From positions 93,360 through 157,359 of the forward strand of contig JBAZRK010000001.1 in assembly GCA_041663005.1 (NCBI GenBank): a DNA stretch of 64,000 nucleotides, given 5' to 3'. Below, one piece after another: positions 29,881 through 42,974 of the stretch. A program made the position numbers and the translations under genes. Positions within the stretch are counted from its first letter, which is position 1. Each line of letters starts with the position of its first letter. This DNA comes from Minisyncoccota bacterium (GTDB lineage: Bacteria > Patescibacteriota > Minisyncoccia > Phycocordibacterales > UBA9973). The notes below the pieces were generated by a model. That model made no database searches. It was given only the letters and a program-made list of their open reading frames with translations, and was not told the DNA's origin.

Positions 29881-29904
29881 GTTTGTTGATTATACTAAGA
29901 GTTA

Positions 29905-29933
29905 TTGCCAAATGTCCAGTTTAATGTTATAAA
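29905..29933 (+). promoter_or_regulatory. candidate sigma70-type promoter (TTGCCA-17-TATAAA) for the first GC-rich ORF
   Basis: -35-like and -10-like hexamers 17 nt apart, about 50 nt upstream of GGAGGAG-ATG at 29984. Confidence 0.35.
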
Positions 29934-29983
29934 AATGTCGGAACTCGCCACGCAGAGTGGTGAGTCAACGGAGGAGAGAAACA

Positions 29984-30544
29984 ATGAGACGACGCATCAT
30001 TGTGATTCACAACTGCGATTACAAGTCAGCGGAAATCCAGGATGTCCTCTGGCGCGCGGACGCCGATGCGCGCTGGATCACGAGTAAATATGCCGAGGAG
30101 GTGGGGTTCTGGAAGGGAAGGACACCTCCTACTGGACACAAGGCTCTCGCGGTCGTCGTGTTCCTCGTCGACGATGTCATCGTCGACCAGTTCGTCAGCC
30201 CGCGGAGGCAGGAGCTCGAGGTCTTCGTCCGTAGCTGGGTCAACCCCGACTACGGAAAGGACGACGAGCGCAGCACCGCGGCTCCGAGCGCCGAACATCT
30301 CGAGAGGATGCGCCAGATCGAGGCGTCGCCTGTTCGCTCGAACCACGTGCCGCACCTGAGCGCCACGGAGATGGCCACGGACCACGACGGCATCGCGACT
30401 GTCGTCCACCCGTCGACGCGCATCGAAGTGCCGCCCCCGCCGCGCCCCGACCGGCGGGAGATGTCCGTCCACACCTGGGAGGAGGATGCGAGACAGGAAG
30501 CGCCCGTCCGCATCAACTCTGACGCCCGTAAGATCACCGGCTAG
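29984..30544 (+). CDS. hypothetical protein, GC-rich cassette 1
   Basis: GGAGGAG RBS 6 nt before the ATG. Strong G/C bias at third codon positions in this frame only. The protein is R/D/E/P-rich and unlike neighbouring host proteins. Confidence 0.55.
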   Translation: MRRRIIVIHNCDYKSAEIQDVLWRADADARWITSKYAEEVGFWKGRTPPTGHKALAVVVFLVDDVIVDQFVSPRRQELEVFVRSWVNPDYGKDDERSTAAPSAEHLERMRQIEASPVRSNHVPHLSATEMATDHDGIATVVHPSTRIEVPPPPRPDRREMSVHTWEEDARQEAPVRINSDARKITG

Positions 30545-30560
30545 CGGTCGCGCCAGAGAA

Positions 30561-30712
30561 CCCCGCCGTGACGTTTGTTAGGTCACGGCGGGGGAGGCCA
30601 AGTTCCTTTTCACAATTTTTTTCGTTTTACTTCTCTCGAGCCGCTGGCTCGTAATTATCGAGCCTTTGCGGACTAGAGACTGCACTGGCTCTTTTTCGTA
30701 ATAGTAGCGTGA
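30561..30712. repeat. cassette-end module copy 1: identical 33-nt perfect palindrome plus two downstream hairpins and a T-run
   Basis: CCCCGCCGTGAC-GTTTGTTAG-GTCACGGCGGGG followed by GAGGCCAAGTT. Then hairpin CGAGCC-GCTG-GGCTCG, then GAGCC...GGCTC followed by TTTTT. Confidence 0.6.
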
Positions 30713-30723
30713 TTTTTTAGTAG

Positions 30724-30732
30724 TGCTATAAT
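30724..30732 (+). promoter_or_regulatory. extended -10 element TGCTATAAT upstream of ORF 30785
   Basis: TGnTATAAT match lies about 50 nt upstream of an AAGGAGAT RBS and the ATG. Confidence 0.35.
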
Positions 30733-30784
30733 TTAAATATTAACAATAAATAAAAAATTTATGCCCTCAGAAGGAGATAACCCA

Positions 30785-31051
30785 ATGACAGCTCGCCAAC
30801 CGGAACATAAAAAGCTATTGCCGCAGCGTGGGCAATTGCTACAGCTAAGCAGCGGGTTTGACAGTCGACGGACTGATTTAGCAACCTACGGCAGAGACCC
30901 CTATTTGGTCTTGGAAGTTGTCGGCGACAAAGTCCACGTACGCAATGCTGATGGCCAGGAAGTGGATATACCCTTATCAAAGGTATCTTTACACTCATTA
31001 ACAGACAGCGAGCATTATATAAAGACGCACTTCCCAGATTTTAAGAAATAA
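30785..31051 (+). CDS. hypothetical small protein (88 aa), cassette 2
   Basis: AAGGAGATAACCCA-ATG RBS. Moderate-GC codon usage that differs from the host. Confidence 0.5.
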   Translation: MTARQPEHKKLLPQRGQLLQLSSGFDSRRTDLATYGRDPYLVLEVVGDKVHVRNADGQEVDIPLSKVSLHSLTDSEHYIKTHFPDFKK

Positions 31052-31064
31052 TTTTGAGTTATTG

Positions 31065-31098
31065 AAACGGCTCAACACTGTTGAGCCGTTTCTCGTTT
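31065..31098 (+). terminator. hairpin terminator after ORF 30785
   Basis: AAACGGCTCAACA-CTG-TTGAGCCGTTT followed by CTCGTTTG. Confidence 0.5.
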
Positions 31099-31156
31099 GC
31101 GGCAGCAGAACCTCGCGGAACATAAAAAGTCTTCGAGGCTTTTTCATTTTCCCAAG

Positions 31157-31185
31157 TTGACAGAACGCCCTAAAGTAGGTAATTT
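31157..31185 (+). promoter_or_regulatory. promoter module TTGACAGAAC-N-TAATTT (copy 1)
   Basis: TTGACA, 17-nt spacer, TAATTT. The module sits 17 nt upstream of CAGGAGGAAGCG-ATG. Confidence 0.5.
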
Positions 31186-31202
31186 ATGTGCAGGAGGAAG
31201 CG

Positions 31203-31418
31203 ATGGACAGCCACATTCGAATTACGCTGCCGGAATGGAATCACCGCGGTGTGGTCGAGCAGGTTGCCAAGCTCCTCGACCGACCCGTTGTCATCGTGAC
31301 ATGGGACGTAAAGTCCCTCACGATTAAGTCTAACGAAGCCCCCTTCAGTGGGAAAGACGTGGTGCGGGTTCAGAAAGATCTCGGTTTCACCGCCGAGATG
31401 CTCTACGAGCCCATCTAG
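31203..31418 (+). CDS. hypothetical small protein (71 aa), first gene of a 3-gene GC-rich operon
   Basis: AGGAGG RBS and GC3-biased codons. Confidence 0.5.
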   Translation: MDSHIRITLPEWNHRGVVEQVAKLLDRPVVIVTWDVKSLTIKSNEAPFSGKDVVRVQKDLGFTAEMLYEPI

Positions 31419-31432
31419 GAGGAGAGAGAAGC

Positions 31433-31708
31433 ATGAAAGCTCTGATGAAGGTCGGGATGATTCCCGACAAAACCCCGTTTGAGACCGCGGAAGCAGTTCG
31501 CGATCTCTTCGGTCGCAGTACTCGCCTCGTCTCGACCGACGAGGAAAAGAGGGAGGTTGTCTTGCAGTCGCTGACAATTCCCTTCTGCAAGGAGGATGCG
31601 GCGTCGGTGCGCCGCAATCTCAAGGTGGCCGCCGAGATGCTCGGAAAGCCGGAGGTGCCGGCCGCCGAAGCCAATGATGAACCCCACGTTCACCCGTGGG
31701 TCGACTAA
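31433..31708 (+). CDS. hypothetical small protein (91 aa), operon gene 2
   Basis: GGAGGAGAGAGAAGC-ATG RBS, 14 nt after the previous stop. Confidence 0.5.
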   Translation: MKALMKVGMIPDKTPFETAEAVRDLFGRSTRLVSTDEEKREVVLQSLTIPFCKEDAASVRRNLKVAAEMLGKPEVPAAEANDEPHVHPWVD

Positions 31709-31719
31709 GGAGGAGAAAG

Positions 31720-31977
31720 ATGTACATCACAGTTCGGAGTAACAGTGCAGAAATCGCTGAGGCTCGTCTTCTTCAGTCAGCCGTTTCCCGGCGGCTGGGG
31801 AAAGCGCTCATCTGGGCGCGTCTCGGCAGGGCAATCGTCATTTTCGGGCACAAGCAGGAGGACCAGCTCACCCCCGGAGACGTGCAGCTCCTCAACGGCG
31901 ACAAGAGGTTTGTCGCCCATGAGAGCACTGAGGAGGAGCTGAGCCGTTCGGGGCTGAGGATCCCGCAGGCTTCGTAG
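31720..31977 (+). CDS. hypothetical small protein (85 aa), operon gene 3
   Basis: TAAGGAGGAGAAAG-ATG RBS. Start reassigned to MYITVRS. Confidence 0.5.
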   Translation: MYITVRSNSAEIAEARLLQSAVSRRLGKALIWARLGRAIVIFGHKQEDQLTPGDVQLLNGDKRFVAHESTEEELSRSGLRIPQAS

Positions 31978-31993
31978 TCCTCCTTCCAGAGCA

Positions 31994-32127
31994 CCCCGCC
32001 GTGACGTTTGTTAGGTCACGGCGGGGGAGGCCAAGTTCTTTCAACAACAAGAAATTTTTTTCTCGAGCCACTCGGCTCGAACATCGAGCCTTGTGGACCG
32101 GAAACGCTTCACGAGGCTTTTCTTATT
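31994..32127. repeat. cassette-end module copy 2
   Basis: The 33-nt palindrome and GAGGCCAAGTTC are identical to copy 1. Then hairpin CGAGCC-ACTC-GGCTCG, then AGCCT...AGGCT followed by TTTTCTT. Confidence 0.6.
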
Positions 32128-32128
32128 T

Positions 32129-32560
32129 TTAGACCATAGTTAACTTCGCGCCCTTTTTCAAATACCAAATCGAAAGAATAAAAAGCAAAATATAAAAAAC
32201 GAGGCCATAAGCGCACGTAGGCAGACCCAAGCTATACTCCGTCCCGCCTGCAAGGAGTTTCCCAATTTCCGGTACAGTAAAATATCCGGCAAAGAGAATT
32301 CCAAGCCCAGATACTGTGCCAATAATTTTCAACATAGATTTTTCTTCAATCGTCTTCACCAGACCCAAGAGAGCGGTAAGGAAAATAATTAGAAACATTC
32401 CAAAGCCGAAATAACAAGCTGGGTAACCTAGGAAATAAGGGCAAGGTTCAGATAGCGCACAAGTGGATGTGAAAAATTTGACCCCACTAAGATAACCCGA
32501 AAACAATAACCCCGCGAGCCCGAGCCAAAACATAGTTTTAGCATAATTTAAGGTTTTCAT
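32129..32560 (-). CDS. small polytopic membrane protein (VKOR/DsbB-like thiol-oxidoreductase candidate), with host-like composition
   Basis: Four to five TM helices. Cys pair TSTCALSEPC in a loop. AT-rich codon usage like the flanking host genes. Confidence 0.5.
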   Translation of the reverse strand: MKTLNYAKTMFWLGLAGLLFSGYLSGVKFFTSTCALSEPCPYFLGYPACYFGFGMFLIIFLTALLGLVKTIEEKSMLKIIGTVSGLGILFAGYFTVPEIGKLLAGGTEYSLGLPTCAYGLVFYILLFILSIWYLKKGAKLTMV

Positions 32561-32621
32561 AAGCGTATTATATCACGTAAAGTCCACAGAAATTTGCTAG
32601 CTTTATGTGATTTTTATCAAT

Positions 32622-32650
32622 TTGACAGAACCGTTTTTGTGATGTAATTT
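32622..32650 (+). promoter_or_regulatory. promoter module TTGACAGAAC-N-TAATTT (copy 2)
   Basis: Same architecture as 31157: TTGACAGAAC, 17-nt spacer, TAATTT, then AAGTGCGGGAGG...ATG. Confidence 0.5.
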
Positions 32651-32669
32651 AAGTGCGGGAGGATTCGGC

Positions 32670-32975
32670 ATGATCATTTTGGTCTTGAGGGGGGAAGTGG
32701 CGATGTCTCGCACGGTCGTGGAAATTCTGCAGGGGGTGGATATCCGCCTCTCTATTTCAGGGGATTGGTTGGACAGAATGCATCACCAGGATGCGCTCAT
32801 CAACCAAAAAATCGTCGTGAGCCCCAACAACATAGCTTACCCCCGCCTGTTTGTGGCACAGGGAGGGGTTACGGAGTTTGCCGCGTATGCGGTAACCGAC
32901 ACGATGGCCCGGCAGGCCATCGAGCTCAACAGTGCCCTCGCCAAGCGAGCGAGGTTGCAGGAGGCAGAGAGATGA
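32670..32975 (+). CDS. hypothetical protein (101 aa), cassette 3 gene 1
   Basis: GGGAGG RBS and GC3-biased codons. Confidence 0.45.
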   Translation: MIILVLRGEVAMSRTVVEILQGVDIRLSISGDWLDRMHHQDALINQKIVVSPNNIAYPRLFVAQGGVTEFAAYAVTDTMARQAIELNSALAKRARLQEAER

Positions 32976-33229
32976 AGAAGGTCACCATCAGCGGAGTTTC
33001 CCGGCAGCTTGCCATCGGCGCGCTCGAGCTCATCCTTGACCTCGTCCCCGGCGCAACGTCCGTCGCGTGGGGGGACGACAAGGTCGTCGTCGTCACCGAC
33101 GACGTCGAAGTCGAGGCTCTGGCAACCCTCGCCGTGGCATACGGTGAGGACGAGGGGCTCTCCATCGAAGAGATCGAAGAGATCCTCCCGCCGCGGCCGT
33201 ATGTGCCCTCCGACGCCCCGCACTGCTAG
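32972..33229 (+). CDS. hypothetical acidic protein (85 aa), translationally coupled to 32670
   Basis: ATGA start/stop overlap at 32972-32975. The product has D/E/V-rich tracts (VVVVTDDVEVEAL). Confidence 0.45.
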   Translation: MKKVTISGVSRQLAIGALELILDLVPGATSVAWGDDKVVVVTDDVEVEALATLAVAYGEDEGLSIEEIEEILPPRPYVPSDAPHC

Positions 33230-33244
33230 TGCGGGGCCGCGGAA

Positions 33245-33385
33245 CCCCGCCGTGACGTTTGTTAGGTCACGGCGGGGGAGGCCAAGTTCTTTCAACAAAT
33301 TTTTTTTCTTTTCCCCGAACCCGGTTTCCGAGGTTCGTATCAAGAGCCTCAATGGAAATCCTTTGCGGCTCTTTTCAATTCTAAT
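33245..33385. repeat. cassette-end module copy 3
   Basis: Identical 33-nt palindrome plus GAGGCCAAGTTC. Then hairpin CGAACC-...-GGTTCG, then AGAGCC...GGCTCT followed by TTTC. Confidence 0.6.
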
Positions 33386-33471: not shown

Positions 33472-33690
33472 ATGACCAAGACGGTTGAAGTAGCTCCCGA
33501 GCAGTTTCCCGACCCGCACAATGTGCGGGAAAACGCGCTGAACGCGCTGTCGGCTTCGCCGACACCTCAGGCCGTGCGTGGCCACCTGCCTCGCCGGGAG
33601 AGGAGGGCGGTTCATCGGGAACTCGTCTACACGAGTGACCGGCAGCAGCCCCACCCGGATCTCCACGATCCGGGAAGACTCCCGAAGTAG
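33472..33690 (+). CDS. hypothetical small protein (72 aa)
   Basis: GGGAGGG RBS before the ATG, GC-rich. Confidence 0.35.
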   Translation: MTKTVEVAPEQFPDPHNVRENALNALSASPTPQAVRGHLPRRERRAVHRELVYTSDRQQPHPDLHDPGRLPK

Positions 33691-33743
33691 AGACCATCGC
33701 GGCGAGAGTCCTAACCTCTCGTCGCACCCTTAACACCGAAACA

Positions 33744-33772
33744 AAAGACGCCCAGTTAGGGCGTCTTTTGCA
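33744..33772 (+). terminator. intrinsic terminator
   Basis: AAAGACGCCC-AGTTA-GGGCGTCTTTTG. Confidence 0.5.
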
Positions 33773-33805: not shown

Positions 33806-33877
33806 GGCCCTATCGTCTAACGGTTAGGACATCGGCTTTTCAAGCCGGTAATCCGGGTTCGATTCCCGGTAGGGTCA
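33806..33877 (+). tRNA. tRNA-Glu (anticodon TTC)
   Basis: Acceptor GGCCCTA/TAGGGTC, anticodon stem TCGGC/GCCGG with loop TTTTCAA, T-arm CCGGG-TTCGATT-CCCGG. Confidence 0.85.
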
Positions 33878-35528
33878 CAGACAAGGATTTTTTATCCTGA
33901 AATTCGTCATATAGCTTGTAAGGTATAGATAGTTTTGGTGTTCCATTAAGTAATTCAGTATATGTTGGCAACTCATCAAAAACCAACCCATAAAATGCTC
34001 TTAAAAGAGTAAGATTCTTTTGTTTTATAAGGTATTCTTCTGGGTGTGCCATTAAGTTTTTTACATATCCTACAAAAGAGTGGACATCGTTCTCCTGAAC
34101 CTCAATTCCGTTTCTTTGCTCTCTGGTTTCTTCTATGCGTTGATGAAGTTTATTAATCTCTTTTTCAAGTTCTGCTCGTATAATTTCATTTGTTGTAGAA
34201 GTAAACGCATTAATCTTTTGTGTTTTCTCAAAATCAAGTTCTGCTACAGTTGTTCCCACTTTAACAGAAAACTCACCAAGTTCTTTTTCTTTCTCTCTAA
34301 ATTTATTTATCAGTGTTGCTTCAAGGGCTTTCAAAAAGCTTTTGTCTACGTGCTTTAATTTTTCTATGCAGACAGCAAGACCATCTTCAAATTCTTTCTT
34401 TGAAACTCTATATTGCTTGTGATTCCTAGCACAATGATATGCTGGAAAACTCTTGCCAGATTTACCAGTAGATGCACTACCTAAAAATGGTTTTTGACAT
34501 TCAGGGCACAACACAACTTCTTTAAAAGGATATAGGGGATTATCTTTCATTCGTTTTAACTGATGTGGGTTATAATCTTTATGTATCAAAATAGTTCCAT
34601 CCTTTTTCTCTTCAATAAAAAAATTGCCTTTATTTGCTCTGTTGTATTCGTCTATGCTCACCAACCCCTTGTAGTTAGTCCTAATAGGCGTTTTTAGCCA
34701 CTTTTCAGTATTAATTCCTGCATAGATGGGTCTTTGTATTATTTTCTGTAATTGCTTCACTGTAAGCTTTACACCGCCTCTCGAACCCAATATTTTATCT
34801 TTTGACCTTGACCACCTGTTTTGTTTCTTCGAACGATATCCAATAGCATTTATGTGGTCAACAATCTGCTGGTCTGTGTAAATGCCCGAAGCTCTCATTT
34901 CAAACATAGTAATAAAAAAGTGGGCTCGTTTAGGGTCTGAAACTTGAATCATTTTTTTCTTACCCTCAACGTAAATTCTTTCATTTACGAAACCATCATT
35001 TTCTTGCCTAACTTTATACCCTTCTCTTACTAAAGTTGCTTCTGCTCCAATCATTCTAGTAAGAATTTGATTAACTTCAATTTTACCTTGTTGAGCCATA
35101 ACAAGTTCTGTAATTTCACTAGGGCGTGTGATACTCCAGTCATATTCGAGACCAAGGTGTTCAAGAGTATTTTTTGTGGGCTGTATGATACCGTTAGAAT
35201 CAATTAATTGAACACCGTAATCAGCTAGTCGCTTTTTTAGACTTTCATACCCAAGAGTTCCATTTCTTGTAAAACGGTCTATGGAACGAAATATAATAAC
35301 ATCAACTTTTTTGGGAGACTTTTTTATAAAAGAAATAATGTCTTCAATAACAGGTCTGTCGTCTTTTCTACCAGAAAGTTGTTCCTTGAATGTTTTTAAA
35401 ACATCGAGTTTAAATTTTTCAGCAACACCGAGACAGATTTTTTCTTGCACTTCAAGACTTTCACCTTCTTGGGCTTGCTTTGCGGAACTAACTCGGCAAT
35501 AAATAATACAATTCTTATTTTCTTTCAT
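33840..35528 (-). CDS. large serine recombinase (resolvase/invertase catalytic domain plus recombinase domain plus zinc-ribbon/coiled-coil)
   Basis: N-terminal CIIYCRVSSAKQ contains the catalytic Ser motif. DRFTRN is present. 562 aa with C-terminal CPEC...C...HC. The last 38 nt are antisense to the tRNA-Glu 3' half. Confidence 0.85.
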   Translation of the reverse strand: MKENKNCIIYCRVSSAKQAQEGESLEVQEKICLGVAEKFKLDVLKTFKEQLSGRKDDRPVIEDIISFIKKSPKKVDVIIFRSIDRFTRNGTLGYESLKKRLADYGVQLIDSNGIIQPTKNTLEHLGLEYDWSITRPSEITELVMAQQGKIEVNQILTRMIGAEATLVREGYKVRQENDGFVNERIYVEGKKKMIQVSDPKRAHFFITMFEMRASGIYTDQQIVDHINAIGYRSKKQNRWSRSKDKILGSRGGVKLTVKQLQKIIQRPIYAGINTEKWLKTPIRTNYKGLVSIDEYNRANKGNFFIEEKKDGTILIHKDYNPHQLKRMKDNPLYPFKEVVLCPECQKPFLGSASTGKSGKSFPAYHCARNHKQYRVSKKEFEDGLAVCIEKLKHVDKSFLKALEATLINKFREKEKELGEFSVKVGTTVAELDFEKTQKINAFTSTTNEIIRAELEKEINKLHQRIEETREQRNGIEVQENDVHSFVGYVKNLMAHPEEYLIKQKNLTLLRAFYGLVFDELPTYTELLNGTPKLSIPYKLYDEFQDKKSLSVTLPGIEPGLPA

Positions 35529-35814
35529 ATACCAATTTATTGTTGAATGGGCTAATTATAACATTTTTTTCCTCAATTTTTTCACGCCACATAACATAAA
35601 ATGCTTCAGCTAAATCATCTTGTATTTGTCTAGCTTTAATAATCTCTTCTTCTGATAAACCAATATCATCTACATCTCCTAATGCTTTTTTATATTCTTC
35701 AAGTCCTATCATCCAATACTTTATTCTAATAAAAACCTTGCAAATAAGCTTCAGCTCTATTGTTAAAATTAATAAAAAAACCTTTTCCAGAAGAAAAAGA
35801 TTTACGACAAGCAT
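35515..35814 (-). CDS. small hypothetical protein upstream of the recombinase, overlapping it by 14 nt (possible regulator or directionality factor)
   Basis: The ORF overlaps the recombinase start. The acidic product has no recognisable HTH. Confidence 0.3.
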   Translation of the reverse strand: MLVVNLFLLEKVFLLILTIELKLICKVFIRIKYWMIGLEEYKKALGDVDDIGLSEEEIIKARQIQDDLAEAFYVMWREKIEEKNVIISPFNNKLVYERK

Positions 35815-35959
35815 CCTTCCCTTTAGGGGTTTTGGCTAGCACCGTTGCCACTCGACTGGCTGGTTGCTGGGCGGATTAACGAGCCAAAACTCTACCGCCT
35901 CTCCTGATACTGATATTTAATTTTACTTACCTAATAAGGATAGCACGGTTCTAAAACTG

Positions 35960-36165
35960 ACCCTGTAAAACTGTGGACAACTTTTTTAAGCTATATAATA
36001 CAAGGTTCTCAAAGAGTCGGAAAATTACCCCTATGAGTGCAAAAACCCCTAAGGATATATGCCCGCTAAAGAGTGCGAAAAGTCCTTTCCTCCTACTATC
36101 GTAGTTGTCTATAAACTCCTTCAAAGAGTGTAAAAACTCCCTCCCAAGGCGTGTAAAAACTCCAA
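35960..36165. repeat. iteron-like direct repeat array (consensus GAGTGYRAAAASYCC, plus two TAAAACTG units)
   Basis: Copies at about 36014, 36035, 36071, 36126 and 36149, with TAAAACTG at 35966 and 35981. Spacings are irregular (21-55 nt). Confidence 0.5.
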
Positions 36166-36649
36166 ATTTGCCTTTTAACGGTGATTTGTTATAAACTCTA
36201 CTTACAACTGAATAGTGAGCGTATCCAGAGCGAGGCGAGAGATTGGACTCAATGACCCTCCAACAACCTACCCAAAGGGCAAGGTGCTATCCACCAAGAT
36301 GACAGAAATGTTGTCGGGAAAGATGCAAAGGTCGAACATTTTTCCTCATTATTAGAGGAAATTTTTATTTTATGGAAGTAGTTAAATTAAGTATTAGACT
36401 TGGTCGTGATTCTTTCCAATATAATTCGGAAGTTCTTAGAAAGAATGGAAAATTTTACTATCGTGCAAATGGTGCAATCATAAAAATAACACCAATTGAG
36501 GCAAGATGTGTTATAAGAAACCCACGTCTTTACTATTTCTCTATTGCCTTGAAACTACACTTATTGATTAACAAAAAGCTTAAATCTTGATAGTATTAGC
36601 TTACAAGTAAATAAGAGACCTAACTCTTAAAGATTTTCTTTAAGATATG

Positions 36650-36795
36650 GTCGAAAGACCCATAGAAGATACTGAACCCCACGTGTTCAGCAACCTTCTA
36701 TGGGCTATACAGGGAAACTTGTATAGGGTCGCAAGACCTAGCTGGCGTGGGGTTCTGTGTTTATACCACGCTAGCTATTATCAGCTAGCTTTTTA
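36650..36795 (+). ncRNA. candidate structured RNA or cis-regulatory leader (uncharacterised)
   Basis: Nested perfect helices: CCCATAGAAG/CTTCTATGGG, CTGAAC/GTTCAG, CTATACA/TGTATAG, GNRA-capped GGTC-GAAA-GACC and GGTC-GCAA-GACC. A long-range 10-bp pairing GAACCCCACG/CGTGGGGTTC suggests a pseudoknot. Confidence 0.3.
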
Positions 36796-36799
36796 TTTT

Positions 36800-37033
36800 A
36801 TGAAAAAAGAAACAATAATGAGTCAGGTAATAATACTAGTTTTGGGGCTTACTTTAATTTTTATTCTGAGAGAGTTTCTAACAGATAAAATTATAGTGGA
36901 AGCTATGAGAGTTCAAGTAGAAACAATGGCAAGTAGAGCTGGATGTTTTGCTAACGCAAGAGAAAAAAATATTAATGATGGCGATTGCACGAGCATAGAT
37001 ATAACTGCTTACAAACTTTATCCTAAATATTAA
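36800..37033 (+). CDS. small membrane protein (77 aa)
   Basis: Start reassigned to MKKETIM. One TM helix (VIILVLGLTLIFIL). Sits immediately downstream of the structured region. Confidence 0.4.
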   Translation: MKKETIMSQVIILVLGLTLIFILREFLTDKIIVEAMRVQVETMASRAGCFANAREKNINDGDCTSIDITAYKLYPKY

Positions 37034-37043
37034 TTATAAATTT

Positions 37044-37688
37044 ATGAAAAAACATCTCACAATTTTGTTTCTCACAGTATTAATAATACCTTCTATCGCT
37101 TCTGCAACTTGGTGGAATCCACTTAGCTGGTCAAAAAATTCCAAGCAAATAGATACCATTGAACCAACATCAACTAAGCCAGTTGAAAAATCTATTCCTG
37201 TATCTGAAACTAAAACCACTGAATCAAAAGTTGTTGAAAGAATAGTAGAAAAACCAACAATCCAAACAATAACCGTGCAAGACCCCGCACTTCAAGCGAG
37301 GGTAAATATTCTTGTGGCGGAAAATGAATCTTTAAAAGCCCAAGTTGGTAGACTCCTTGAATCCAACAAATCACTCAATAAAGAATTATTGGCTTGTGAA
37401 GATACCCCAGCATCTACTTTTTCTGCTGATGACCAATGTGAGTATGCCCAAGATTCTCTAAAAGATTTTCTTGAACAGTATACCGAGTTAAGTGCTGAAA
37501 TAAGTAAGGAGCGAGAGAAAATAAAGAAAAACCCTGAAAGTGCCGAGAAACCTTACATAGATATTTATCATCGTTCTGGATTGAATGCTATGCTCAGTAG
37601 TTTCAATATTTCATCAAGTCAAAAACTCAAACCCCTTATTAAGGGAAAGGAATCTGCTGAATCAGCAGTAGCACTCTATTGCAACTAA
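37044..37688 (+). CDS. secreted coiled-coil protein of unknown function
   Basis: Signal peptide MKKHLTILFLTVLIIPSIASA, then a T/K/E-rich linker, then a coiled coil (LVAENESLKAQVGRLLESNKSLNKELL). Confidence 0.55.
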   Translation: MKKHLTILFLTVLIIPSIASATWWNPLSWSKNSKQIDTIEPTSTKPVEKSIPVSETKTTESKVVERIVEKPTIQTITVQDPALQARVNILVAENESLKAQVGRLLESNKSLNKELLACEDTPASTFSADDQCEYAQDSLKDFLEQYTELSAEISKEREKIKKNPESAEKPYIDIYHRSGLNAMLSSFNISSSQKLKPLIKGKESAESAVALYCN

Positions 37689-37869
37689 AGACCTAGAACT
37701 CTCTTCCTGTGGCATCGTAGAGCTTCCAGAACCTTGTCAGAATCTTGCCATCCGTTTTTTAAAGTATCCTAATTTTCAACGTTTTGGTTTTTGAGGACTG
37801 ATAAGGTAGTGTTAATAGTAAAGTGTCGGAAAATTCTCGTAAACCGTGTAGAAGTATTATACTTAAGTA

Positions 37870-39471
37870 ATGTTTAAAAACGAGAAAGGAGAAACAACTC
37901 TTCATATTGATACAAGGCTTGGAGAACTTACCACAGGTGAACCAAACGTGAACGAAGAAAAACTCAAGCAAGCTTTAAAGGCATACAATTTAAAAGAAGC
38001 CCTTTTAACTTTGTCTGAACTATCAAAAAACATTTTCAACGAAAACATTCCTGAACCATTTCAAAAGATGGGGAAAACTGGGATGCGTCATCCCGCAGGT
38101 TTAATTATTGCACAATTTGCTATTGAATATTTAGCTAGTGTTTTTATTATTTCAGGAGCTAACGATTATAAAAAAGAGAGCGTAAAAACAAAAGACAACA
38201 TATTGGGTCTTTTTAATATATATAATAATTCTCTTATACAACCTGTTTTTTTAGGCAATCATTTATCAACTTTACTTATACCGATGTATTTTGTTCAACT
38301 TAGAAGCCAATTTAGCCCCCAAGACCTTTTCACTAGGCAATGGATGATTTTTAGTGAAATGAGAAAAAAGACTAATAATATTTTTGAAGATATAAACAAA
38401 ATTATTTTTGACAACACAAATCTTACCATTGAAGAAATATCAGGGATTTCTTTTTCAATTTTTGCTTACTTAATACAAAATCCACTATTTAATATAGGAA
38501 ACTTAGAAGGACATACGGTTGAAAGCTTTAAAAATCTTTTAACTAAAGAAAAAATTGATTCATTTTTAAACTTATATACAGCTACTTATTCACAAATTCG
38601 TGAGTTAGACCAAAAGTTAAATCCGATAGACCTTAAAGAATATACAAAAGCCCGATTTAACCCCTTATGGAAAAAGCCAATAATAAAATTAGATGAAAAT
38701 TTATTTTTAGCACCTAGTTTAACAGCTTACACAACCGCAAGCTTTTATGGATTATTCTGGTGGTTTGACGATTACTATCGAGAGCAATCACAGAAGAAGC
38801 AAATGGATTTTAGGAAATATTTTGGAATTTTATTTGAAAATTACGCTGGAGAAGTTCTTTCAGATTTGTATGGAGAAAGTTCACTCAGAAAACAAATAAA
38901 GTATGGATTAAAGGGTAAAAAAATTGATTTTACAGATTGGGTAGTAATTAAAAACGATAAAGCGTATCTTTTTGAAGTTAAGGCATATCAATTTCCTCTA
39001 GAGGTTCTTCAAAAAGGAAAATCTGATGATGTTAGGAAACAGGTAATAAAAAAAATTGTTGAATCAATAAAACAGATATATCAAAGGTCTCAAGACATAC
39101 CTAAGCACAAGGAACTATCAGAGTTCAATAAAAAAGTAATAATCCCAATTGTGGTTTTTTATGATTTGCCTTTTATCTCTACTTCTCCTTCTTTGTATAA
39201 AGACGATATACTCAAAGCTCTTAACGGTTTAGATTCTAAATATAATGGGATTAAAGATTTTAAATATTACCTAATGAATATTGATGAATTGGAAGATTTT
39301 TATTATTGCTCTGATAATATTGAGATAGAGGATATCTTTGAGAATATTAAAGATAACCCAGCCAAAGGGGTTAATTCTGAAATTATTATCCATATAAAAG
39401 ACAAGAGTCGAAAGAATTTTCTCGATAGACAATTTAATAAATATTTAGATGACTTAGTGCCTGAATTATAA
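37870..39471 (+). CDS. hypothetical protein with a C-terminal PD-(D/E)xK-like nuclease motif (operon gene A)
   Basis: 533 aa. KKIDFTDWVVIKNDKAYLFEVKAY matches a D...(D/E)xK arrangement. No other domain recognised. Confidence 0.55.
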   Translation: MFKNEKGETTLHIDTRLGELTTGEPNVNEEKLKQALKAYNLKEALLTLSELSKNIFNENIPEPFQKMGKTGMRHPAGLIIAQFAIEYLASVFIISGANDYKKESVKTKDNILGLFNIYNNSLIQPVFLGNHLSTLLIPMYFVQLRSQFSPQDLFTRQWMIFSEMRKKTNNIFEDINKIIFDNTNLTIEEISGISFSIFAYLIQNPLFNIGNLEGHTVESFKNLLTKEKIDSFLNLYTATYSQIRELDQKLNPIDLKEYTKARFNPLWKKPIIKLDENLFLAPSLTAYTTASFYGLFWWFDDYYREQSQKKQMDFRKYFGILFENYAGEVLSDLYGESSLRKQIKYGLKGKKIDFTDWVVIKNDKAYLFEVKAYQFPLEVLQKGKSDDVRKQVIKKIVESIKQIYQRSQDIPKHKELSEFNKKVIIPIVVFYDLPFISTSPSLYKDDILKALNGLDSKYNGIKDFKYYLMNIDELEDFYYCSDNIEIEDIFENIKDNPAKGVNSEIIIHIKDKSRKNFLDRQFNKYLDDLVPEL

Positions 39472-39479
39472 TAATTTAT

Positions 39480-40628
39480 ATGAATATTAGCGAAATAATG
39501 AAAAGTGCTCCCAGATATCTTGCGATGCGGTATGGCTCATTGTATACCTATGTTTGGCAAAGTTTATTTCCCAAGGAATATATAAACAAAGTTCTTTACA
39601 GAATTGACAACCCAAAAGAAAAAAAGGAAAAGTTTTTCCGAATGAAAACAATAGCAGAGGAGGCATCTGTGTTAGTTTTCCTTTTCTATACCAAAAAAAT
39701 GTTAATTGAAGGGGCTAATGCCACAAAGAACACGGTTGATATCCTAAAGGAACTAGATATTAAAGAATTTCGCTTGGGGAAAACAAGGTTTGCTGGAAGA
39801 AACAATAACGTCATATTGGGAGATAGGCTTGCGGAAAGACTTCTACGTTTACTTGATGATGATGTAAAAAGACTTCTTTCAAGAACTGAATATATGTCTC
39901 AAATTATTGACCACTACAGAAGGTTAAGAAACGAGGAACGCACATATAATTATTTATTCGACAAAAAAGAAGCGGAAGTAAAATTAAAAAGATTTTTTGC
40001 AAATGAAAAACCACGCCTACGGACTTTCGGAAATGTTGTAAATCAAGTGTTTGAAGCCTACACTTTTGCCTCTACCATAAAATGGTATCAAAGTAATGAG
40101 TGGTTAGTTCACATAATTAATCCAAAAGTAAAAAGCAAGGGTATTTTTCGGTTGAAATTTTCAACTATGGGTGCACCAAATAAATACAGTTATGCAATAT
40201 GTGAAAAAGGAGAAAAAAAATGCCAAATAAGACACCAGTTAAGAGTAACTACAGAATCCTATCGAGATAAGAATAACTATAGAGCTAATATATGCTGTGA
40301 TATTTCGGTCATAAATAATTTAGATTTGAACCTTTATTCAACTGCTATGGCTATCCCAAACAAGGAATTGATTTCATTTGGTGAAGTTAAACATATGTCT
40401 GCTTTTGCGGAGCTTTTAGCGAACTTTGTTGGATTAGTTCACGAACTACAACCACGTAGATTAAGAACAATTAGAACCAGAAGATGGGCGAGAAATGAAC
40501 ATATTTCACCATTTCTAAACGTCAGTGGGTTTTTGCAACCTACTGCAAAAGGCTTGAATGAAACAATTGAAAAGAGAAAATATGACATTGATGTATACCA
40601 TTATGAAAATAAAATGGTAAATATCTGA
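39480..40628 (+). CDS. hypothetical protein (operon gene B)
   Basis: 382 aa, starting 8 nt after gene A. No recognisable motif. Confidence 0.5.
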   Translation: MNISEIMKSAPRYLAMRYGSLYTYVWQSLFPKEYINKVLYRIDNPKEKKEKFFRMKTIAEEASVLVFLFYTKKMLIEGANATKNTVDILKELDIKEFRLGKTRFAGRNNNVILGDRLAERLLRLLDDDVKRLLSRTEYMSQIIDHYRRLRNEERTYNYLFDKKEAEVKLKRFFANEKPRLRTFGNVVNQVFEAYTFASTIKWYQSNEWLVHIINPKVKSKGIFRLKFSTMGAPNKYSYAICEKGEKKCQIRHQLRVTTESYRDKNNYRANICCDISVINNLDLNLYSTAMAIPNKELISFGEVKHMSAFAELLANFVGLVHELQPRRLRTIRTRRWARNEHISPFLNVSGFLQPTAKGLNETIEKRKYDIDVYHYENKMVNI

Positions 40629-40679
40629 AAGAAATTAAATATATGTTAAAATAGGATAATTTCTAAAAAACAAATTAAA

Positions 40680-41642
40680 ATGATAAAAATTACACTTGAT
40701 ACAAATTGCGTTATAAACCTACTTAACTTTAATGCTGAAACACCTACTTCTGTAGATGAACTTTCCGAAATTATAAAATATGGGCTTGATAGTAATGCTA
40801 ATATCGCTATTACAACCAGAGTTGAAAGCGAATGTGAAGGAGACAAAAATAAAGAACGCAGTAAGGAAATGATACGTAAGATACAAATGTTGCCTGTAAT
40901 TGGCACAGTTGCACGTTGGAATACCTCAAAATGGGATGGCGGTGATGTTTGGGGAGGTCAGGAACACGAAAAGTTGTCTGATGAACTTACAAAAATAATT
41001 TTTCCAGCTCTAAAAAAAGAAGATGCTCACTATAAAAATAAGATAAATGATATTGACCATCTCGTAGGGCACATTATTAATAAAAGAGACATATTTGTAA
41101 CCGATGATGCACAGATTCTTAAAAAATCTGAGACACTTAAAGCAAGTCTCAATTTAACAGTGATGAGTCCAAAACAAGCCCTAGAGTATCTAAATTCTAG
41201 AGGTGATAAAACAATCCTAGTCCAAGATTTTTATGATAAGTTTCTAGAACAGAAAAAATTAATCTTAAAATTTCTCACATCTGAAAAAGATTTGGAACTG
41301 CTCGATAAGTATGAAGAAAATCGTCAATGGTTAATCCGTAAATACCCCAACATTAAAGATGGATTGGGAGATTTTAAAGTGCAACAGATGTCAGTTCCAA
41401 TGGGCGGACAAAGAGCCTTTACTCAAATTGATATTGTTTCTTTGCAGTTCTTTAATAAAAAACTAAATGCCTTGTTGGTGGAAAGAAATCCTCTGAATAT
41501 TCCAGATATTATATCTAATAATCCCGATAGCTACGCTGTCGTTTATTTAAGTGAAGAAGAGAAACTAGGTAAAACCATCAGTTTCTTAAATAAAATAGAG
41601 GATTTACTACTTGGATACTTAGGAAAATTAGAAGGAAAATAA
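40680..41642 (+). CDS. PIN-domain protein with a roughly 150-aa C-terminal extension (operon gene C)
   Basis: N-terminal IKITLDTNCVINLL contains the first PIN Asp. RDIFVTDDAQIL matches the fourth acidic motif. Confidence 0.6.
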   Translation: MIKITLDTNCVINLLNFNAETPTSVDELSEIIKYGLDSNANIAITTRVESECEGDKNKERSKEMIRKIQMLPVIGTVARWNTSKWDGGDVWGGQEHEKLSDELTKIIFPALKKEDAHYKNKINDIDHLVGHIINKRDIFVTDDAQILKKSETLKASLNLTVMSPKQALEYLNSRGDKTILVQDFYDKFLEQKKLILKFLTSEKDLELLDKYEENRQWLIRKYPNIKDGLGDFKVQQMSVPMGGQRAFTQIDIVSLQFFNKKLNALLVERNPLNIPDIISNNPDSYAVVYLSEEEKLGKTISFLNKIEDLLLGYLGKLEGK

Positions 41643-42271
41643 TGACCTCAATTAAAGTCTTAAAGAAAAGGTTCGAAGAAGTTACCAATGCTGTCTCTCG
41701 GTTGGTTGATGATAGATATTTTTTCCTTGAATATAAGAAATACCTCGAAGAACACCCGAATATTGATAAAAATAACGAATTTTTATATTTTATAGGTTTA
41801 AATTATGTAGAAACCACTTGTTTGGGGATATTCCGTCAGGTTGACCGCAATCCAAAATCTCAAAGCCTATTAAACATACTAAAGACTATACAAAAAGAAC
41901 ACGAATCTTTTACTCTTGGATTCTTTTGTAGAAAATACAGAAGAAGTAATGCAGGCTTAGGTAATGGAATAAAAGATTTTTCTCAGTTTGCTCTTAAAGA
42001 TGGTAAAAAAATAAGTCCTAAAAAAGTTAAATCCGATATATTGGCTCTTATAAAAATAACCAAACCCATTGTTAAATATAGACACAAATTTGTAGCTCAC
42101 AGAAATATAAGGAAGGTCACAATAAACGTGAAAATGAATGACTTATACACGGTAATTGATTTTTTAGAGAAAATGGTGAGTAAATATCAGCTCCTTATCA
42201 ATCAAGCAGGAATGCCTTCGTTACGTGCAGGAAATTCGCATCCTAATCTGCAAGCCGTCTTTAAAGAATAA
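41642..42271 (+). CDS. putative HEPN-like protein (operon gene D)
   Basis: TAATG overlap with gene C. YRHKFVAHRN contains an R-x5-H match. The assignment is tentative. Confidence 0.45.
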   Translation: MTSIKVLKKRFEEVTNAVSRLVDDRYFFLEYKKYLEEHPNIDKNNEFLYFIGLNYVETTCLGIFRQVDRNPKSQSLLNILKTIQKEHESFTLGFFCRKYRRSNAGLGNGIKDFSQFALKDGKKISPKKVKSDILALIKITKPIVKYRHKFVAHRNIRKVTINVKMNDLYTVIDFLEKMVSKYQLLINQAGMPSLRAGNSHPNLQAVFKE

Positions 42272-42275
42272 TTGT

Positions 42276-42788
42276 ATGAAAACTTCCGCACCTATTTCTA
42301 AAAGTCAAAATTCAGAAAGTATATTTTTTCAAAATATACTTCATTTTCTTTTATCTACTCACATAATACCGCTAAGAGAATATTCTTTGCAGTATGTTCC
42401 AAAAAATCAAGCAAAAATCGTAACTCTAAAAACGAGTTTTGGAGAAGATATATCTACTTATCTTGAAGAATTACCAACACCTTCAGACAAAGATTTTAAT
42501 CAAATTTCAGCCCGTATTTTAATTAATGGATGTTATGAAATCTTTAAAGAAAGTTCTATAAAAGAAATAACTTCTTCTGAAGTGGTTGAATTTTTTCGAC
42601 ATATACGAAACGCATCATCACATAAAGGTAAATTTATATTTAAAAAAGACGAGCCAAGGAAAAAAGCGAAATGGCGAGAGCTGGAGATTACTAGAGACTT
42701 AAACGGCTCTGACCTATTTGATTTTATAGCTATTGGCGATGTCATATTACTTTTACAAGATATTGATGATTGGGAAATCATAAAGTAA
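42276..42788 (+). CDS. HEPN-domain protein with canonical RNxxxH motif (operon gene E)
   Basis: Start reassigned to MKTSAP, 4 nt after gene D. FFRHIRNASSHKG carries R-N-x3-H near the C-terminus. Confidence 0.55.
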   Translation: MKTSAPISKSQNSESIFFQNILHFLLSTHIIPLREYSLQYVPKNQAKIVTLKTSFGEDISTYLEELPTPSDKDFNQISARILINGCYEIFKESSIKEITSSEVVEFFRHIRNASSHKGKFIFKKDEPRKKAKWRELEITRDLNGSDLFDFIAIGDVILLLQDIDDWEIIK

Positions 42789-42974
42789 AACTTTTGACTC
42801 TAGTTCTATAACTGATTGGGTAATTATTCAAATTGCTTTTACGCCATAAAACCTTTATAATAAAGGAGCTTTGAAACATTTAGGAAACAAGTTCAATGTG
42901 AGCGAAAACATTATTCCAAGTAATAATCATATTTTCAATGGAGTTCCATTGCAGATATGGTGAGCTCACTGCGA

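Follow-up and report, generated by a model that had tools for sequence, protein, structure and literature searches.

A conserved hairpin module behind exchangeable GC-rich gene cassettes at a hot spot of Candidate Phyla Radiation genomes

Introduction

Repetitive extragenic palindromic (REP) sequences act as stabilising hairpins at 3′ ends in Escherichia coli operons. Phage morons and the minimal mobile elements of Neisseria are autonomous units of promoter, open reading frame (ORF) and terminator that have an atypical GC content and lie between conserved genes. Integron cassettes carry small, mostly ORFan genes, each with a structured repeat of about 60-140 nt. In the Candidate Phyla Radiation (CPR, Patescibacteria), where genomes are tiny, the acquisition and expression of foreign genes are little understood. 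Here we describe a module of about 140 nt composed of three hairpins that ends small-gene cassettes in a CPR genome from groundwater. The DNA analysed, called the window in the following, comprises 64,000 nucleotides of a Minisyncoccota bacterium (assembly GCA_041663005.1, contig JBAZRK010000001.1, positions 93,360 to 157,359 of the forward strand). The contig, of 333 kb, is assigned to 'Candidatus Paceibacterota'. The genome is Paceibacteria/Nomurabacteria-like with about 42-49% GC, and among named organisms Candidatus Nomurabacteria are closest to it.

The module is real and conserved, a structured element that had not been catalogued before. It occurs three times in the window and, with the same architecture, six more times in three related genomes. 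Most likely, it is the conserved 3′ end of lineage-specific, self-contained small-gene cassettes of Nomurabacteria-like Paceibacteria and acts on the sense transcript as RNA. Its function is probably that of an ordinary terminator and stabiliser. What is unusual is the setting, since the module marks exchangeable GC-rich ORFan cassettes at a CPR hot spot.

Results

Anatomy of the three modules

A perfect palindrome of 33 nt, CCCCGCCGTGACGTTTGTTAGGTCACGGCGGGG, here called P1, was found exactly three times in the window, always on the plus strand, at 30561-30593, 31994-32026 and 33245-33277. It reads CCCCGCCGTGAC-GTTTGTTAG-GTCACGGCGGGG and forms a perfect 12-bp stem. An earlier sequence-only reading of the window had reported the three identical copies, and they were exact (0 expected by chance, 0 in 100 shuffles); no further match with up to three mismatches was present in the window. 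The identity of the three copies runs from the A at −1 through GAGGCCAAGTTC, which is 46 nt, and copies 2 and 3 stay identical as far as TTTCAACAA. The start of the module had been placed immediately after a stop codon. It does lie just downstream of one, with P1 beginning 15-16 nt past the stop codons at 30542-44, 31975-77 and 33227-29.

In all three copies P1 is followed by a linker, a T-rich spacer, the hairpins H2 and H3 and a T-run. Copy 1 (30558-30700) has the linker at 30594-30612, then the spacer, H2 at 30637-30651, H3 at 30660-30691 and the T-run at 30692-30696; it scored 89 bits with the covariance model (CM) R1. In copy 2 (31991-32129, 116 bits) the linker is at 32027-32047, H2 at 32064-32079, H3 at 32087-32118 and the T-run at 32119-32130. 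In copy 3 (33242-33383, 99.5 bits) the corresponding positions are 33278-33298, 33316-33337, 33344-33371 and 33372-33375. The H2 arms are CGAGCC and GGCTCG in copies 1 and 2, and CGAACC and GGTTCG in copy 3. P1 with the following 12 nt is 98-100% identical among the copies and the remaining module 44-60%; the part from the linker to H3 has a GC content of 34-44%. The P1 arms are always C-rich on the 5′ side and G-rich on the 3′ side. The 3′ arm together with the first linker bases gives a Shine-Dalgarno-like GGAG(G) in eight of the nine modules (30585-30598, 32018-32031 and 33269-33282 in the window, and the equivalent position in the relatives), and no start codon follows it.

The P1 loop contains GTTAGGT, which matches the integron R-box consensus GTTRRRY. 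This match had been called fortuitous, and we agree. It is real in the window and absent from every related module, whose P1 loops (CTGG, GCGCG, AATTAAGTCCTCTG and others) contain no GTTRRRY. An integron attC site was rejected as an identity of the module. The only GTTRRRY lacks a RYYYAAC partner, so that no R″/R′ pair of core sites is formed, and the module consists of three separate hairpins with unpaired 5′ and 3′ ends and not of one bulged hairpin. In addition, precomputed Pfam hits called no tyrosine recombinase beside the arrays in the four genomes, a criterion that alone would be compatible with a CALIN-type array (cluster of attC sites lacking integron integrases).

Folding and covariation

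The window modules of about 140 nt were compared with shuffled sequences and gave z scores of −4.6, −7.3 and −5.8, with none of 200 shuffles folding as well. Covariation was counted in a CM alignment of eight modules, which are only eight related sequences aligned to the very structure that is tested. Standard pairs occupied 84% of the cells, compared to 37-51% in slid controls. Twelve of the 29 pairs showed changes on both sides (8 in P1, 1 in H2 and 3 in H3), and none of 500 shuffles matched the observed values of pairing and double changes. The proposal that the hairpins are kept by compensatory changes was thus borne out. In Rfam 15, the modules had no match at the gathering threshold, and only sub-threshold overlaps at the chance level were seen at E ≤ 10.

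H3 is always located downstream of an ORF on the same strand. In seven of the nine modules a T-rich run comes directly after it; this run is delayed by 5-7 nt in two modules of related genomes (n2 and r2, see below). H3 thus combines a GC-rich hairpin, a U-rich tract and a same-strand gene upstream, the sequence features by which intrinsic terminators are recognised. Of the three options named originally (a composite terminator, a small RNA, or a recombination or packaging site), the composite terminator is the best supported.

The RNAalifold consensus chose a different helix, formed by the H2 3′ arm and the H3 5′ arm. This helix has 4-6 bp in seven of the eight modules and is part of the minimum-energy fold of the modules m1, r1 and n1. 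The module could be a regulatory RNA, either a conditional terminator in which the alternative pairing acts as antiterminator and allows read-through to the following cassette, or a small RNA (sRNA) that is released from the 3′ untranslated region (UTR) and spans the linker to H3, with P1 as the mark of its 5′ end and the linker as seed. The conserved single-stranded linker, the two hairpins and the U-tail follow the usual layout of an sRNA. On the other hand, the alternative helix shows no double changes and arises automatically because H2 and H3 share the same arm sequence. Neither a sensor element nor a target was identified, and the element sits at the 3′ end. Matches to P1 or the linker or to their complements elsewhere in the window were at chance level only. 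The downstream neighbours vary as well, being a promoter, a convergent gene or a tRNA. We regard a regulatory RNA as rather unlikely.

Modules in related genomes

The six further modules lift the condition that would have spoken against the element, namely that no copies exist elsewhere. Two of them (n1 and n2) are at locus L124 and on its duplicate contigs, which were reached via the only homologue of a cassette protein, C1. Modules r1 and r2 are in Candidatus Nomurabacteria GW2011_GWB1_47_6 (locus L129), and q1 and q2 are on the contig CAZKJE010000001.1 of a metagenome-assembled genome (MAG; loci L037 and L127). Where it was measured, the TrxB identity to the relatives was 78% (L127) and 86% (L129). 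All related modules keep the same order, with a GC-rich hairpin first, then a linker whose core is GTTCTT..AACA, an A/T-rich spacer and finally H2 and H3. Across the modules, the first hairpin starts 0-38 nt after the stop codon.

The sequence of P1 varies among the related modules, and it differs even inside one array in all three other genomes. The identical palindrome is therefore local to the window genome and does not define the family; the relatives carry other GC-rich hairpins. Only q1 departs from this: its 12-bp stem is identical, and its loop, of 14 nt, is different. The modules do lie at the ends of gene cassettes, each behind a GC-rich ORF unit.

The modules belong to a recurring locus with the conserved order ftsA-ftsZ-trxB-[tRNA-Ser, tRNA-Glu]-variable region-(UDG)-NTP-transferase-gdh-tRNA-Val-tsaD-valS. 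The cassette array occupies the variable region between the NTP-transferase (nucleotidyltransferase) gene on one side and tRNA-Glu on the other. The tRNA-Glu(UUC) gene (33806-33878, plus strand) fixes the right border of the array, both in the window and in L124 and L129. One relative has the syntenic locus without any cassette. At this hot spot, unrelated ORFans of foreign composition are placed between a common promoter and a common structured 3′ module.

The search for more copies was extended in several ways. An exact scan of metagenomes for the tRNA-Glu gene yielded 52 loci with modules in only two, both of them copies of known contigs. The CM search of 52 sources (435 kb) from related organisms found only hot-spot copies, and a search of the window by CM R1 with the filters off was negative outside the array. 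Scanning genome contigs for a 10-bp stem with a variable loop returned at least 120 GC-rich palindromes. The matches listed were mostly from high-GC Actinomycetota and Pseudomonadota and the flank was in none of them; one, L037, was later recognised as a true relative. Viral contigs (scanned with the DNA motif and with proteins) and phage records (blastn and tblastn) contained no similar sequence, and no account of such cassettes in CPR was found in the literature.

These searches bear on the question of whether the module is a selfish dispersed repeat, similar to REP/BIME (bacterial interspersed mosaic element), Correia or MITE (miniature inverted-repeat transposable element) sequences, that is located behind genes by chance. 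Its length of about 140 nt, its palindromic content and its position just after ORFs are alike. However, the other ~60 kb of the window and the 52 sources hold no dispersed copies, all copies are direct and co-oriented with the GC-rich ORF upstream, and a filled and an empty site (described below) differ without terminal inverted repeats or target duplications. A selfish repeat is therefore very improbable.

Two other kinds of structure were noticed upstream of tRNA-Glu in the sources scanned. At L160/L179 and L146/L153, a GC-rich ORF lies 0.2-0.8 kb upstream on the opposite strand in other Paceibacteria, and these ORFs end in hairpins containing GAGCCTCGC / GCGAGGCT. Since the CM gives no match to these hairpins, they may represent a different cassette type. 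At L137/L138/L142, about 300-400 nt upstream, partial 5′ ends of tRNA-Glu (GGCCCTATCGTCC...) are followed by an insert and then by a small ORF resembling genes of GIY-YIG-type endonucleases. Judged from the sequence, this looks like a tRNA gene that was disrupted or duplicated by a mobile insertion.

Exchange of the cassette payload

L124 and L129 have syntenic arrays with two modules each. For both module pairs, n1/r1 and n2/r2, the alignment extends from P1 (from its outer stem or its 3′ end) via H3 to tRNA-Glu. The ORFs ahead of these modules cannot be aligned, and the n1 and r1 proteins tested were without similarity. This shows that the payload was replaced beside a conserved module. A second case was found in L127, where the spacer between ftsZ and trxB is filled by a complete unit consisting of a promoter, an ORF of 218 amino acids (aa) and module q2. 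In a relative, this spacer is only 18 nt long. The 3′ arm of H3 is exactly where the insert ends. A comparison of the filled and the empty site revealed no inverted repeats and no clear target duplication.

The points where homology ends are scattered. Between L124 and L129 they fall within P1 or at its end, and q2 has its break point at the end of H3. In the window, the identity ends at +46 in copy 1 and at +58 in copies 2 and 3, and the upstream break points of homology are at −3 to −11. The different ends among the copies fit variable crossover end points.

One explanation for the exchange is that the module, or P1 with the linker, is a recombination or docking site whose hairpin, as single-stranded DNA or cruciform, is recognised by a recombinase or HUH-type enzyme that is encoded elsewhere and inserts or exchanges cassettes, comparable to attC of integrons or to the subterminal hairpins of IS200/IS605. 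Several observations agree with this. The arrays have the same orientation, hold unrelated ORFs and occupy one hot spot with contents that vary among relatives and with an empty state; payload was swapped beside a conserved module; a cassette was inserted between ftsZ and trxB; and the window genome has three direct, perfectly identical sites of 46 nt. The identical P1 stem with another loop length elsewhere fits the recognition of a hairpin and not of a duplex half-site. Against this, no recombinase adjoins the arrays in L124, L127 and L129, P1 is not uniform within the arrays of the other three genomes, the break points lack a common fixed position, and attC core sites, terminal inverted repeats and a clear target duplication were not found. 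Also, each cassette has a promoter-like sequence. We consider a recombination site improbable on balance. The same low probability applies to the more specific version, in which the module and its conserved promoter partner are the docking site of an undescribed CPR cassette-exchange system without adjacent integrase, with the crossover at P1 and the linker. Such a system would take up and swap GC-rich ORFan payloads at the hot spot linked to tRNA-Glu and, on occasion, at intergenic sites elsewhere, and would explain the perfect identity of P1 in the window genome. If the module were a recombination site, this would be a new cassette-capture system.

Function of the module

The reading that we favour, with about as much confidence as doubt, is a composite 3′ module in which a hairpin that protects the mRNA is joined to a tandem intrinsic terminator, and which serves as the conserved flank downstream of exchangeable gene slots. 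P1, the long GC-rich hairpin past the stop codon, would protect the 3′ end or act as a barrier there. H2 and H3 would act as tandem hairpins, of which H3 with its U-run may be the intrinsic terminator and insulate the cassette against its neighbours. Combined with the conserved promoter and 5′ UTR, the module would provide a fixed expression slot for unrelated GC-rich ORFan payloads, which are probably exchanged by homologous recombination in the conserved flanks. The perfect identity over 46-58 nt may then be the footprint of a recent recombination or gene conversion at the junction of payload and module, and not a functional requirement.

Several points weigh against this terminator and stabiliser. 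P1 with its loop and the following 12 nt is 100% identical in the three copies with only 44-60% identity in the remainder, and a terminator or stabiliser needs structure only. In L127 the identical 12-bp stem recurs with another loop. In the linker core GTTCTT..AACA and in the apical part of H3, GGAAC(G)TAAAA(A)GTCC, the sequence itself is conserved, which hints at recognition by a factor. The identity of P1 and its loop, the recurring stem and the conserved linker and H3 apical loop keep the recombination hairpin and the sRNA or conditional terminator alive as explanations. Furthermore, the known set comprises only nine modules in four genomes, and the CM alignment had been fitted to the structure under test. 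The preference for folding of the sense strand is weak (summed −262.7 versus −251.3 kcal/mol) and the strand bias of the pairs is small (16 G-U versus 10 A-C cells). The strand assignment therefore rests mainly on the same-strand ORFs upstream and on the T-runs. Finally, termination and stabilisation are predicted from the sequence.

Cassettes and their cargo

The cassette units consist of tiny ORFs with 56-66% GC and a GC content at third codon positions (GC3) of 0.72-0.85. Host genes have 44-49% GC and a GC3 of 0.46-0.58. The cargo has a composition characteristic of genuine coding sequence of GC-rich origin. A promoter-like sequence is present on every unit, and two types of promoter and 5′ UTR recur between cassettes and between genomes; their function as promoters is predicted from these motifs.

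Cassette A contains one ORF of 186 aa (29984-30544, plus strand; GC 0.64, GC3 0.82), an ORFan whose protein found only itself among 5.8 billion proteins. It is preceded by a type 1 promoter-like region with a 5′ UTR hairpin (29895-29983, plus strand; TTGCNAAATG...AATGTTATAAAAAT) that can be aligned with cassette promoters of L124 and L129. Cassette B (31203-31977, plus strand) has three tightly packed ORFs with a GC3 of 0.72-0.73, B1 (31203-31418, 71 aa), B2 (31433-31708, 91 aa) and B3 (31720-31977, 85 aa). Its promoter-like region and 5′ UTR (31150-31202, plus strand) are of type 2, TTGACAGAAC..TAATTTA..GGAGGA, and align with those of cassette C, of r2 in L129 and of q2 in L127. B1 and B2 (31203-31708) are weak paralogues with 28% identity over 64 aa and a common C-terminal ..V(R)..L....AEML..P, a likeness that suggests a tandem duplication within the cassette.

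Cassette C (32670-33229, plus strand) also has a type 2 promoter-like region and 5′ UTR (32612-32669, plus strand) and encodes C1 (32670-32975, 101 aa) and C2 (32972-33229, 85 aa) with a GC3 of 0.72 and 0.85, respectively. C1 had one relative, P0003, with 50% identity among 1.84 billion representatives, and P0003 likewise precedes a module. Cassette D (33472-33769, plus strand) is a GC-rich ORF of 72 aa with a reduced 3′ end, comprising a P1-like hairpin of 10 bp (33699-33725) and a simple terminator (33743-33769).

The cargo proteins had no match in Pfam, PHROG or PADLOC. AlphaFold2 models gave a pLDDT (predicted local distance difference test) of 52 for cassette A, and of 52-56 for A and C1 together. 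A kinship of B3 with a 101-aa protein of L129 and an 83-aa protein of L124 was seen by eye and rejected, as BLASTP did not support it for the two pairs tested. Hairpins were also seen in the 5′ UTRs, with ACTCGCCAC..GTGGTGAGT ahead of the cassette A ORF (29935-29975) and a hairpin of 50 nt ahead of the q2 ORF (L127 9785-9985, minus strand). The cassette transcripts are therefore structured at both ends. With promoter-like sequence, ORFs, terminator hairpins and a deviant GC3, the cassettes have the features of moron-like units, with the promoter being predicted and without a phage context.

Host-like genes in the array

Two genes of host-like composition are interleaved in the array. X1 is an 88-aa ORF (30785-31051, plus strand; GC 0.46) with its own promoter-like site. 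Behind it is a degenerate module (31064-31150, plus strand) that has no P1, an H2-like hairpin at 31064-31092 and an H3-like terminator, CCTCGCGGAACATAAAAAGTCTTCGAGG, with a T-run. It was detected by CM R1 (23 bits, E ~1e-4) and by nhmmer, and it matches H3 of module n1 in blastn. The second gene (32129-32560, minus strand; GC 0.41) is on the opposite strand within the array and encodes a VKOR-like membrane protein (Pfam VKOR E = 2e-5, under the family cut-off). The array sequences also occur in a contig from ENA, a MAG from NCBI, a contig from JGI and the Logan unitigs of two other runs, where the unitigs break at the repeat. The junctions are therefore not an assembly artefact or chimera.

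The recombinase island beside the array

Next to the array, between tRNA-Glu and tRNA-Ser, is an AT-rich island of about 9 kb (33879-42970, 29-37% GC). It encodes a large serine recombinase of 562 aa (33840-35528, minus strand), several ORFans and an HEPN/AbiU2-like gene (41642-42271), and it is probably an integrated defence island. It also contains a LOOT RNA (RF03000) at 36617-36739 on the plus strand, which is a full-length Rfam match with 81 bits versus a gathering score of 46 and overlaps the start of a predicted ORF of 128 aa (36647-37033). No equivalent island was found in L124, where tRNA-Glu and tRNA-Ser are about 270 nt apart.

Whether this recombinase binds or cleaves the palindrome had been raised as a question, and the module could be its attachment or binding site. 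The gene is only 0.5 kb away from copy 3, and the palindrome has about the size of an att site. However, the recombinase belongs to the separate island, the module-bearing loci L124 and L129 show none at the equivalent position, and P1 is absent from the island borders at tRNA-Glu and tRNA-Ser. The 3′ end of the gene overlaps tRNA-Glu, as is expected for an element that has integrated next to or into a tRNA gene. The link did not hold up, and we consider it extremely unlikely.

Discussion

The analysis yields a structured motif that is absent from Rfam and has covariation support, and a concrete model of modular gene exchange in CPR bacteria. The covariance model provides a searchable signature for more cassettes and their cargo.

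Of the systems to which the module can be compared, IS200/IS605 elements and REP sequences with their REP-associated tyrosine transposases (RAYTs) likewise have hairpins in direct orientation, with conserved stems and variable loops, that flank DNA segments. In contrast, neither a Y1 transposase nor a RAYT was seen with the cassettes, a conserved cleavage tetranucleotide was not identified, and a single hairpin type per genome exists only in the window. Integron cassettes and CALIN arrays are similarly composed of co-oriented small genes, and the repeats of sedentary chromosomal integrons are homogeneous, as in the window genome. In contrast to integrons, the arrays have no R″/R′ cores, no bulged hairpin that joins the ends of the element and no integron integrase that could be found; the cassettes have promoters, and the repeats vary within the arrays of the other genomes.

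Morons and minimal mobile elements resemble the cassettes in their organisation and in having alternative contents at one site in related genomes, and an exchange by flanking homology is plausible for both. The cassettes differ in having no prophage context and a CPR host. They also differ in that the common flanks are the cassette's own promoter and structured 3′ module and not the neighbouring housekeeping genes. With terminators combined with 3′ stabilisers, the module shares GC-rich hairpins after the stop codon, a U-run past the last one and compensatory change. Unlike such terminators, it is confined to one cassette family and not spread genome-wide, and it keeps the order of its hairpins and the sequence of the linker and the apical loop across unrelated genes in four genomes.

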